Source: Promethearchaeota archaeon
Lineage (GTDB): Archaea; Asgardarchaeota; Thorarchaeia; Thorarchaeales; Thorarchaeaceae
Reading direction: 5' to 3'
DNA length: 32,000 nt
NCBI GenBank assembly: GCA_027031765.1
Contig: JALVPN010000067.1
Location: 1-32,000 of the forward strand
Below the pieces are notes generated by a model. That model saw only the letters and a program-made list of their open reading frames with translations, searched no databases and had not been told where the DNA came from. Made by a program: the position numbers and the translations under genes. This document shows positions 24,198-27,100 of the stretch, piece after piece (the stretch's first letter is position 1; each line of letters starts with the position of its first letter).

Positions 24198-27100
24198 TCA
24201 GGCAACGATGTGTACGGGACGGAGGTTGACGACCCTGTGTTCGCCGTCGGCACTGTCATACTCGACCATGCCCACAAGCTCGCCCTCAGCACCCGGCTGG
24301 AGTTCGAAGTCAATCTCGGTCACCGACACACCACCTGGCTCGATTGTGCCGACCACTTGGCTCTTGATGACATCGGTCAGGTCGGGGACGCCGAGTACGA
24401 CCTGGACGTTGTGCATGGGGTTCTTCGACCCGTTCCGGACCGCCACACCGAAGATGACCTTGCCATCGCGGATCTTGTACTCAACGAGCACCTCCATGCC
24501 CGGTTCCAGGCCCGGACTTGCAGGCTCGGCCTCGGTCACGTACTCGCGCCTGCGCCAGCGCTCAGCCACCTTGCGGCCCACCACTGAGAGGACGACGACC
24601 GCCAAGACAACACGCATCACTGCAAAGCCCCAGTGCACGGTCGGTTCGAAGTCCGCGCCATCCAGGAGCATGTCGCCGTCGGTATCTGACGAGGTGGCAT
24701 TGGTACCGTACACGACCACCTCCTCTCGGTCGGACAGGCCGTCACCATCGGTGTCAGCACTGACAGGACTGGTATGATAGAGGGTCAGCTCTGCATAGTC
24801 GGACAGGCCATCACCGTCAGTGTCATTCACCAGTGGTGACGTGTGGTACACGTTGACCTCATCGTAGTCACTGAGGCGGTCACTATCAGTATCGGCCAGC
24901 TCTGGGTCAGTGTGGTACTCGGTGACCTCCTCCCGGTCGGACAGGCCGTCGGAGTCGGTGTCAACGCTGGTGGGGGATGTCTTCGAGACCATCACCTCAT
25001 AGTAGTCTGAGAGGCCATCACCATCGGTGTCTGACAGTGTGGCGTTCGTCCCATAGACGAAGACCTCATCATAGTCAGAGAGGTGGTCGTTGTCAGTGTC
25101 CACCGAGGTGGGGCTCGTACCATACAGGTGCACTTCGGCACCATCGATTATCGAGTCGGAGTCGGTGTCCCGTTTCCGGGGGTTGGAGCCGTACTGGACC
25201 TCGAGGCCGTCCGCCAGGTCGTCATTGTCATAGTCGGGGTCCAGGGGCAGGGTGCCGTAGACCCGTAGCTCCTCTATGTTCGACAGGCCGTCACCATCAG
25301 AGTCCCACTCCGAGTCCAGCACACCGGGGTGGGTCATGTTCTTGATTGGGCTCGTGCCGGTCAGCTCGACCTCCTCGTAGTCGGTGAGCCGGTCGTCGTC
25401 AGTGTCCACCCGCAGTGGGTCAGACCGGTAGTCCTTGACCTCCCGGTTGTCGTCGAGGCCGTCACCATCAGAGTCGCGGGCCAGCGGGTCAGTGTGATAC
25501 ACCCTGGTCTCGTCGTAGTCAGAGAGTGTGTCCCCATCAGTGTCTGCCTTGCGTGGGGCGGTGCCAGCAAGGATTTCCTCGATGTTCGTGAGGCCGTCGC
25601 CGTCCTCGTCGTCATTGAGGTCGGAGATACCATCATCGTCCGTGTCCTTGTCACGCGGGTCAGTGCCCGTCAGGTAGCACTCCTGGTAGTTCGTCAGCAG
25701 GTCACGGTCCTCGTCGTCAGCACCGTCGTCAATCCCATCACCGTCGCTGTCAGGGTTGCGTGGGTCAGTGTGTGTAAGGGCGAGCTCGTCCGAGTTTGAC
25801 AGGCCATCACTGTCGATGTCCCAGTCGGCATCAGAGGTGCCGTCGCCGCGAGTGCTGTACCGCAGTGGATTCGTGAGGGTAAGGTTGGCCTCTTGGTAGT
25901 CAGTGAGACCGTCCGAGTCGGTGTCTGGAGAGAGTGGGTCTGTCCCGAGTGCGACCTCTTGGGCGTCAAGCAGCAGGTCAGAGTCAGTGTCCATCACCAA
26001 CGGATCCGTATTGTATACGTTGAGTTCAAGACCATCTGTCAGGCCGTCCCCGTCAGTGTCAGGAGTGAGCGCGTCGGTCTCGAAGACCATAATCTCGTCG
26101 TAGTCGGACACGCCATCTGCGTCGGTGTCCGTGCTGTTGAGCAGGGTGTGATAGGTATACGCCTCCTCACCGTCCTCCAGCAGGTCGCCGTCGGTGTCCC
26201 GCCGGTTCGGGTCGCTGGAGAACAGGAATATCTCGTCCCAGTCACCAATGGAGTCATCGTCAGTGTCGCCATCTCGGGGTGAGGTGTGGCTTGTGAAGAC
26301 CTCATACGAGTCGGACAACATGTCGCCGTCCGTGTCGACCAGTGTACAGTTGGTCTCATAGTAGTATATCTCAAGGTAGTTGTTGATACCGTCGCCGTCC
26401 TGGTCATCAAGGTCGTCAGGGACACCGTCACCATCGCTATCGCTGGACGTCGGGTCTGTGTGGCTGTTCCAGAGCTCGTCGTTGTCGGCGAGGTGGTCAC
26501 CATCAGTGTCAGGGGTTGTGGGGTCAGTACCGAGGTCGTTGACCTCGTCGCCGTCCTTCAGGTCGTCAAAGTCGGTGTCAGGGTTCTTGGGGTCGCAGCC
26601 ATGATCAATCTCTTCACCGTCCAGCAGACCGTCGTCATCGCAGTCAGGGTCAGTACCATCAGTGTCGTATACCTTCCACTCCTCCCAGTCAGAGAGGCCA
26701 TCAGAGTCTGTGTCATTGTTGTTGGGGTCAAGGCCAAGTTCGAGCTCCTTCCGGTCGTCAATCTGGTCGCCGTCGGAGTCTGGACTATTGGGACTGGTGC
26801 CGTAAGTGTTCACCTCGTCATAGTCGGACAGCAGGTCACCATCGGTGTCCCAGTCAGTAGGGCTGGTCCTGGACACGTACACCTCGTGGTAGTCGTCAAG
26901 CCCATCAGCATCGCTGTCATCGCCGGTGGGGTCTGTATGATAGACCACGTACTCCTCATAGTCGGAGAGACCGTCGTCATCCGTGTCCATATCCGTGGGG
27001 GACGTACCAGCAAGGTGTACCTCAGTGCCGTCGCTGAGCAGGTCACCATCGGTGTCCCATGCGGTCGCGTTCGAGTGGTAGCCATAGATCTCAAGCCCGT

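Follow-up and report, generated by a model that had tools for sequence, protein, structure and literature searches.

The predicted cytoplasmic tail of a giant Thorarchaeial surface protein is related to Asgard appendage-type Ig domains

Introduction

The adaptin appendage domain is regarded as a hub for protein interactions, and Asgard archaea encode multidomain proteins in which an appendage region is combined with Vps28-C, longin, TPR, Ig and HTH/PCI modules (Makarova et al., PMC11188069). A Lokiarchaeial family of about 790 residues has been annotated as Adaptin-C plus Vps28-C (Makarova et al., 2024, mBio, PMC10936438, Table S2), and in Meth_adaptin (arCOG15284; Methanosalsum zhilinae WP_013898578.1) the appendage region is fused to a GOLD domain via a transmembrane linker (Makarova et al., 2024, PMC11188069). 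Appendage-like domains of archaea are hence already published as parts of soluble ESCRT-linked proteins and, in one instance, as a domain joined to GOLD through the membrane. Here we describe a related domain at the C-terminus of a 2,273-residue protein of a Promethearchaeota archaeon (Thorarchaeia, family Thorarchaeaceae), encoded on the minus strand of a 32,000-nucleotide stretch of DNA that we call the window (contig JALVPN010000067.1 of assembly GCA_027031765.1, positions 1 to 32,000). A search of sequencing runs listed the probable source of the sequence, a hydrothermal vent metagenome, and no RNA data set. What is new is that a platform-less copy of this domain forms the invariant, predicted cytoplasmic terminus of a giant surface adhesin, which occurs family-wide and in single copy. 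Literature on Thorarchaeota thrombospondin-type proteins, on GAE domains and the BBSome in Asgard archaea and on the tails of Asgard adhesins yielded nothing on this protein.

Results

A sequence link between the tail and Asgard appendage-like Ig domains

Window positions 24198-24575 (-) hold the stop codon and residues 2149-2273, the last 125 residues of the protein. The only long frame across them is the stop-free minus-strand open reading frame (ORF) 24198-31019, and a plus-strand reading is not plausible as protein. The listed start is a GTG; the true start is likely an ATG 11 codons further in, at 30986 (MKVRRLVILL...). The best-supported reading of the gene is that it encodes a giant, calcium-binding type-I surface adhesin or receptor of Thorarchaeia (Table 1). 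Its terminal sandwich sits behind the transmembrane helix and a 26-residue linker, and the stop codon follows 99 residues after the sandwich begins, such that the platform subdomain, solenoid trunk and hinge are all absent from the tail.

A profile of this tail matches an internal domain (about residues 455-567) of the Lokiarchaeial proteins of about 790 residues; such matches occur in 32 of the 40 genomes searched from another Asgard family (E values 1e-7 to 1e-10; 1e-9 to 1e-11 in a local hmmsearch). When aligned by hhalign, the tail and the Lokiarchaeial Ig domain share 92 columns at 34% identity (probability 96.9%, E 2e-10). The same comparison gave 73% for a DUF11-bearing Asgard protein and, as a control, 0.16% for the extracellular array of approximately 11 Ig-like domains in the second giant protein that the window encodes. 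The Lokiarchaeial proteins carry an N-terminal Zn ribbon, winged helices of the DDRGK/UFL1/PCI type and a match to the Vps28 C-terminus. In a structural model of their C-terminal half, the sandwich is followed by a helix-strand-helix-four-strands-helix platform and then by a helical bundle. All top Foldseek matches of this model are appendages that extend over both subdomains, namely the COPI leaf (1.9e-9), alpha-adaptin (4.1e-8), beta2-adaptin (4.8e-8), BBS9 and gamma-COP. A VIA comparison of the model likewise aligns 196-202 residues to the beta2, alpha and gamma-COP appendages of AP-2 and COPI, and the AP-4 appendage is matched as well. By transitive homology, the sequence comparisons thus identify the adhesin tail as a member of the Asgard appendage-type (Adaptin-C) Ig family. 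It shares with this family its sequence and, as predicted below, its cytoplasmic location, and lacks the TBP-like platform of the bipartite region that is found in relatives at loci L015-L027, L022 and L024.

Three further Asgard proteins begin with a signal peptide, which is followed by an ectodomain of the GIFT/ABC_transp_aux or DUF2341 type, one transmembrane helix with a basic cluster and then an Ig domain on the inside. Their sequences show that the order of ectodomain, transmembrane helix and ear-type Ig is a recurring Asgard layout. Two of them align with the Lokiarchaeial profile over its Ig and its platform alike (E 5e-35 over 218 columns and E 1.1e-9 over 214 columns), with winged helices or a Zn ribbon alongside. 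The first is a 1,258-residue type-I protein (L022 2764-6537 (-), G039:C90) with a GIFT/ABC_transp_aux ectodomain and a transmembrane helix bordered by KRKKRQK; its cytoplasmic side holds DDRGK/UFL1-type winged helices and the full Ig-plus-platform region (the hhalign match at E 5e-35). The other two are adjacent Thorarchaeial type-I proteins (L024 673-2964 (-) and 3374-6544 (-), G069:C5), each with a DUF2341 ectodomain, one transmembrane helix and a cytoplasmic Ig; one of this pair, which has a LysW-like Zn ribbon at its end, accounts for the alignment at E 1.1e-9.

A broad profile of the Ig family also detects three other proteins in the genome of the window: a HEAT protein, a 654-residue Zn-ribbon rod and a 618-residue soluble protein. 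In the HEAT protein (404 residues; L002 1075-2286 (-), G000:C77), a HEAT-like N-terminus precedes a sandwich that belongs to this Ig family and an alpha/beta region at the C-terminus, resembling a trunk-plus-appendage layout in miniature. Its Thorarchaeota HEAT_2 cluster in the ESM Atlas fits two of the models, that of the tail over the sandwich (TM-score 0.81) and the Lokiarchaeial one over the platform (119 residues, 2.8 Å). With hhalign, the Lokiarchaeial Ig-plus-platform profile aligns to this HEAT protein over the Ig only (probability 38%), the platform being seen by the Atlas shape match alone. The two flanking genes (L002 327-965 (+) and 2428-3273 (+)) encode a Ras/Rab-like GTPase, matched by Pfam Ras at 5.6e-49, and a WD40-like protein. 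In the soluble 654-residue protein (L055 994-2958 (-), G000:C112), about six CxxC...CPxHG zinc-ribbon modules are followed by an acidic hinge and by the Ig, which the broad profile matches at E 3.3e-17; after an alpha/beta region, the protein ends in a further Zn ribbon.

Topology of the tail

A hydropathy scan finds only two hydrophobic segments in the adhesin, the signal peptide and one C-terminal helix, which puts the tail across the membrane from the exported ectodomain. The charge distribution around this helix is strongly biased. The window protein has six Lys and Arg residues in the 15 positions after it and none before it; summed over 18 orthologs, the 15 positions before the helix contain 8 Lys plus Arg and 64 Asp plus Glu, and the 15 positions after it 87 Lys plus Arg. 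Tail length is confined to 121-127 residues in all 18. The ectodomain is rich in sequons and in Asp (24% of the repeat residues), whereas the tail is not Asp-rich; the lone NxS sequon (NGS) in the sandwich is missing in some orthologs (RNGA). Winged helices, Zn ribbons and HEAT repeats, which accompany this Ig in the relatives described above, are typical cytoplasmic modules and thus lend support to the same topology. By these sequence rules, a cytoplasmic location of the sandwich is well supported. A sequence-only reading of the window had placed a cytosolic all-beta domain of about 100 residues behind a transmembrane helix and the basic stretch RKVAERWRRR, with which the range it gave opens directly after the helix. 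The strings it quoted are present at that place, and the signal peptide, the single stop-transfer helix and the positive-inside bias bear out its assignment, with the domain predicted inside rather than outside.

Fold of the sandwich

AlphaFold2 (AF2), when supplied with an alignment of four orthologs, folds the tail into a seven-strand all-beta sandwich (mean pLDDT 86, pTM 0.77). The first ten linker residues are unstructured, and the linker is modelled at low pLDDT without secondary structure. Searching with this model by Foldseek ranks ApaG first (6e-6); by TMq, the best of the first ten matches is a COPI-leaf chain (0.76). The nearest ESM Atlas clusters are an Asgard PCI/UFL1 cluster (TM-score 0.82), the Thorarchaeota HEAT_2 cluster and another Thorarchaeota cluster (0.81 each) and coatomer beta (0.81). 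Clusters of CARDB and DUF11 reach 0.74-0.76, compared with 0.80-0.82 for the nearest clusters. Judged by the model's fold alone, the tail is a generic E-set Ig-like sandwich, with appendages among its best matches but not singled out.

What, then, connects the Asgard Ig family to eukaryotic ears? In the models, the link lies in the fold and in the arrangement of two subdomains, not in sequence. The tail matches none of the eukaryotic appendage or GAE families in Pfam (Alpha_adaptinC2, Coatamer_beta_C, COP-gamma_platf), and it does not follow a hinge on a HEAT or alpha-solenoid coat subunit. It equally has no Pfam match to CARDB, DUF11 or NPCBM_assoc, and it is a single sandwich on the predicted cytoplasmic side instead of an extracytoplasmic tandem array.

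Distribution and conservation

Of 43 genomes from the family to which the window belongs (16 genera), 40 contain one copy that the tail profile finds (E 1e-42 to 1e-61), each time at the C-terminus of an ORF of 2,236-2,301 residues. A divergent ortholog of 2,197 residues is present in a second family of the same order (E 1.6e-17), and all named homologs belong to Candidatus Thorarchaeota. Regional identities, taken as the mean of the window protein against 16 same-family orthologs, are highest in the linker and the sandwich (Table 1). In ortholog alignments, the linker is nearly invariant (core EPASPGLEPGM); the second-family ortholog has another sequence in its place. No other part of the giant protein is as constrained as linker and sandwich, a pattern that fits a conserved internal partner.

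A phmmer search with the tail against 1.84 billion representatives returned orthologous fragments only; a match of 748 residues (P0009) is an artefact of low-complexity repeats. Short homologs of 302-403 residues that look complete (P0014, P0015, P0021) were considered as a small form of the gene. Searches of the genomes give full-length ORFs of about 2,250 residues instead, and the short versions most likely stem from fragmented gene calling in the repeat DNA. Separately, a 220-residue protein on a JGI metagenome contig of 2,243 nt (P0025; L053 1196-1858 (+)) contains a tail-type sandwich at 57% identity behind an unrelated N-terminal region lacking a transmembrane helix. It may be a soluble stand-alone version of the sandwich, known from this single short contig.

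Domain architecture and gene neighbourhood

The propeller of the ectodomain is matched by Pfam BBS2_Mid (2.8e-15; 56.8 bits, cutoff 27), Beta-prop_CGLA (lambda-carrageenase) and Beta-prop_BBS7, and also by FG-GAP and BBS1. The eukaryotic BBSome models (BBS2_Mid, BBS7, BBS1) recognise archaeal surface propellers of the FG-GAP/PQQ type as well, as they do here. The repeat region contains 65 matches to the motif DxDxD...D..E, spaced about 23 residues apart between residues 407 and 2089, and Pfam TSP3_bac matches both the adhesin and its homologs.

Table 1. Features of the adhesin and genes of its cluster. Position refers to the window unless a place in the cluster is given.
Feature	Residues or length	Position	Strand	Mean identity	Basis
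Signal peptide from likely true start, MKVRRLVILLSLFLCVLAGVQQGS	signal-peptide-like helix 12-35	30915..30986	-	20%	translation and hydropathy
Extracellular FG-GAP/BBS2-type beta-propeller	about 36-404	29808..30914	-	40%	Pfam
About 65-70 TSP3-like calcium-binding repeats, 24% Asp	405-2125	24645..29807	-	61-66%, inflated by Asp motif	motif count, Pfam
Single transmembrane helix, WGFAVMRVVLAVVVLSVVG	2130-2148	24576..24632	-	24%; position conserved, sequence not	hydropathy scan, KD 2.24
Basic juxtamembrane stop-transfer cluster, RKVAERWRRREY	2149-2160	24540..24575	-	28%	Lys plus Arg counts
Conserved linker, candidate short linear motif, VTEAEPASPGLEPG	2161-2174	24498..24539	-	82%; most conserved stretch of the whole 2,273-residue protein	mean identity
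Predicted cytoplasmic seven-strand Ig-like beta-sandwich; protein end, no platform subdomain	2175-2273	24201..24497	-	72%	AF2, hhalign
ABC-2 permease	396 aa	cluster gene 1			Pfam
ABC ATPase with TrmB-like N-terminal domain	558 aa	cluster gene 2			Pfam
S8 subtilase fused to GIFT/DUF4350 (GldG/IFT52-like), C-terminal transmembrane helix	1,352 aa	cluster gene 3			Pfam
Second ABC ATPase, cut by window end, 35 nt upstream of adhesin start	332 aa	31055..32000	-		Pfam ABC_tran
Soluble TPR protein, next gene downstream of adhesin	422 aa	22592..23860	-		Pfam TPR families

The adhesin gene is the fifth of six co-directional genes. Those upstream of it were read from window positions 31055-32000 together with L045 156-8427 (G000:C67, beyond the window), where the subtilase gene contains a short run of N. 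Conceivably, the tail docks onto a protein of its own cluster, either the TPR protein or the adjacent ABC ATPase, and the ABC transporter, the subtilase-GIFT protein and the adhesin form one system for maintenance or release of the surface adhesin, unconnected to ESCRT or coats. Such a system would loosely resemble giant-adhesin systems that have an ABC transporter and a protease of their own. It would share with the reading we favour the notion of docking and differ in the partner, and the tail would then belong to an ordinary adhesin-maintenance system with an Ig-fold handle. The conservation of the cluster speaks for this possibility: all four upstream genes are kept in 7/7 genomes checked, the order ABC ATPase, adhesin, TPR in 16 of 17 loci (16 genera, two families), and the 332-residue ABC ATPase, whose gene lies so close to the adhesin start, adjoins the adhesin in 17/17 loci at 63-79% identity. 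TPR proteins bind extended peptides, and the linker is both the most conserved and the least structured piece of the tail. Neighbourhood by itself does not show binding, however, and the TPR protein, at 37-47% identity, has diverged more quickly than the tail, its gene is displaced or absent within 5 kb in three loci, and the second-family ortholog lacks the linker motif although TPR synteny is kept. A complex prediction of the tail with the syntenic TPR protein scored 0.00, a value that counts neither for nor against binding. Weighing both sides, we consider a partner within the cluster unlikely, yet the strongest of the alternatives. Further downstream, a membrane protein of 381 residues is not conserved.

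The window contains a second giant ORF (6930-14465 (-), 2,511 residues), with a propeller-like N-terminal part, a long Ig-like array rich in NxS/T sequons, a multi-helix membrane region and an acidic Ser/Asp tail in its C-terminal part. Its Ig domains are unrelated to the adhesin tail.

Discussion

What might such a tail do? We favour the reading, at a probability of roughly two in three, that the gene encodes a giant surface adhesin or receptor whose platform-less Asgard appendage-like Ig tail serves most likely as a protein-docking module. The outside part, a propeller and about 1,700 residues of calcium-binding TSP3 repeats, would be connected through the single transmembrane helix to the inside tail of fixed length. 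We envision that the Ig surface, possibly together with the EPASPGLEPGM motif of the linker, is presented to a conserved cytoplasmic partner, and that docking couples the surface protein to an internal process such as sorting, turnover, clustering or anchoring. Candidate partners would be the TPR protein or ABC ATPase of the cluster if the adhesin is maintained or released in this way, ear, ESCRT or GTPase proteins of Asgard archaea if the role is sorting or remodelling, and the tail itself if it is clustering. Partner binding by the tail is what we infer here, as would be any link to ESCRT or coat-type machinery.

Several observations weigh against this reading. The analysis turned up no partner of the tail, and Ig-like domains also act as inert spacers or oligomerisation units. 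In Pfam, the tail matches no family above noise (DUF1344, GH18_BT1044-like). Across 22 family members, there are matches to Alpha_adaptinC2 (7) and GAE (6), all of them sub-threshold, and to DUF11 (9) and NPCBM_assoc (8); relatives thus match DUF11 and NPCBM_assoc as often as Alpha_adaptinC2 and GAE, nearly always under the curated cut-offs. The best relative reaches 22.6 bits for Alpha_adaptinC2 (cutoff 27.6) and 19.2 for GAE_BBS1 (cutoff 27), and DUF11 is at or above its cut-off for two distant relatives (L023, 50.5 bits; L024, 24.8, cutoff 24.6), whereas an appendage model is so for none. Hidden Markov model searches of PDB sequences with the broad Ig profile and with the Lokiarchaeial C-terminal half found no eukaryotic appendage; what came back was a GH20 Ig domain (E 0.001), along with factor XIII and a weak Vps28 match. 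Finally, the Lokiarchaeial model is of middling quality (pLDDT 66), and its two subdomains superpose on appendages only separately; the root-mean-square deviation for the pair is 12-16 Å, because they are set at a different angle.

The appendage likeness put forward by the sequence-only reading therefore stands in part. The tail is a relative of the Asgard appendage-like Ig, whose bipartite region matches COPI and adaptin appendages in the models, but it has no appendage match in Pfam and neither platform nor trunk nor hinge. The structural comparison which that reading called for ended in a tie that includes appendages, with non-appendage E-set domains equally close and no clean win for a generic CARDB or FN3 domain either. 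Its further suggestion, an adhesin wired to a coat- or trafficking-type module, is not supported, as we found no evidence for a coat or trafficking link.

Alternatively, the Ig-like sandwich of the tail may be generic and lack a specific partner. Acting as a plug on the cytoplasmic side or as a unit for homo-oligomerisation, it would stabilise the giant protein in the membrane or cluster it there, and its likeness to appendages would reflect only the common E-set fold. The tie of fold matches across many unrelated E-set domains, the failure of any appendage Pfam model to reach threshold for the tail or its relatives and the missing platform would all be expected of such a module. We nevertheless regard it as improbable: an identity of 72-82%, surface loops included, is maintained across 16 genera next to a transmembrane helix at 24%, which is more than a spacer needs, and the profile homology is specific to the Ig of bipartite appendage-like regions, with none to extracellular Ig arrays. 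That the domain is instead an extracellular surface domain of the CARDB/DUF11 type, preceded by a hydrophobic segment that is no stop-transfer anchor, would agree with the mostly sub-threshold matches of distant relatives to DUF11, NPCBM_assoc and CARDB (families that are usually extracellular) and with the one sequon in the sandwich, and yet it is disfavoured to the point of near-exclusion by the signal peptide with exactly one further hydrophobic helix, the count of 8 against 87 basic residues across that helix, the loss of the sequon in some orthologs, the Asp content that sets the ectodomain apart from the tail, and the company that homologous Ig domains keep in proteins lacking a signal peptide, namely Zn ribbons, winged helices and HEAT repeats.

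If we return to the tail as a docking module, a bolder version would be an adhesin that carries its own ear. In this speculative scenario, to which we give little credence at present, contact of the ectodomain with another cell or a surface would cluster the Ig domains and linker motifs, and these would recruit Asgard ear-binding or ESCRT/GTPase-type machinery, with the HEAT-plus-ear protein beside the Rab-like GTPase and the Vps28-C proteins among the candidates. If true, it would amount to an outside-in link from adhesion to membrane remodelling and to a prokaryotic forerunner of receptor-adaptor coupling in which the ear sits on the cargo side. More generally, the tail bears on whether Asgard cells connect surface adhesion to internal machinery, and its 125 residues, which are expected to fold alone, offer a bait for partners of ear domains in the closest archaeal relatives of eukaryotes.

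How does this arrangement compare with described systems? The adhesin as a whole recalls integrin alpha and the thrombospondins, in that an FG-GAP-type propeller on a type-I protein, TSP3 repeats and a tail in need of an adaptor come together. We draw this parallel purely as an analogy; integrins have short peptides for tails instead of folded domains, and we claim no homology beyond the classes of propeller and repeat. CARDB, DUF11 and NPCBM_assoc domains share with the tail the strand B-C signature x-V-x-V-x-N-x-S...I-x-N-V-x-V-x-L, but they are typically extracellular and repeated in tandem, whereas the tail sandwich is single, predicted to be cytoplasmic and less similar to them by Atlas TM-score. 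Meth_adaptin, which we compared by description only, is a published archaeal case in which an appendage-like region is likewise held at the membrane and linked to a domain outside the cytoplasm; unlike the adhesin, Meth_adaptin comprises both Ig and TBP-like subdomains, bears a small GOLD domain in place of a 2,100-residue adhesin, and occurs in another, non-Asgard lineage within an ESCRT gene neighbourhood. The closest detectable sequence relative outside the orthologs is the Lokiarchaeial Adaptin-C plus Vps28-C protein, which has the same seven-strand layout and is also cytoplasmic and Asgard. It is soluble and has a platform, winged helices, Zn ribbons and a Vps28-C bundle, whereas the tail consists of the Ig only and is tethered by a transmembrane helix to a giant adhesin. 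The eukaryotic ears that we compared are those of gamma-COP (1r4x), beta-COP, AP-2 alpha and beta2 (1w80, 1e42) and the sandwich-only GAE domains of gamma-adaptin and GGA (2ymt, 3mnm). Unlike these, the tail lacks a match at the level of sequence and sits on a cargo-like membrane protein rather than behind the hinge of a soluble coat subunit with a HEAT trunk. In its design, it resembles a stand-alone, sandwich-only ear of the GAE type that has been placed on the cargo itself.

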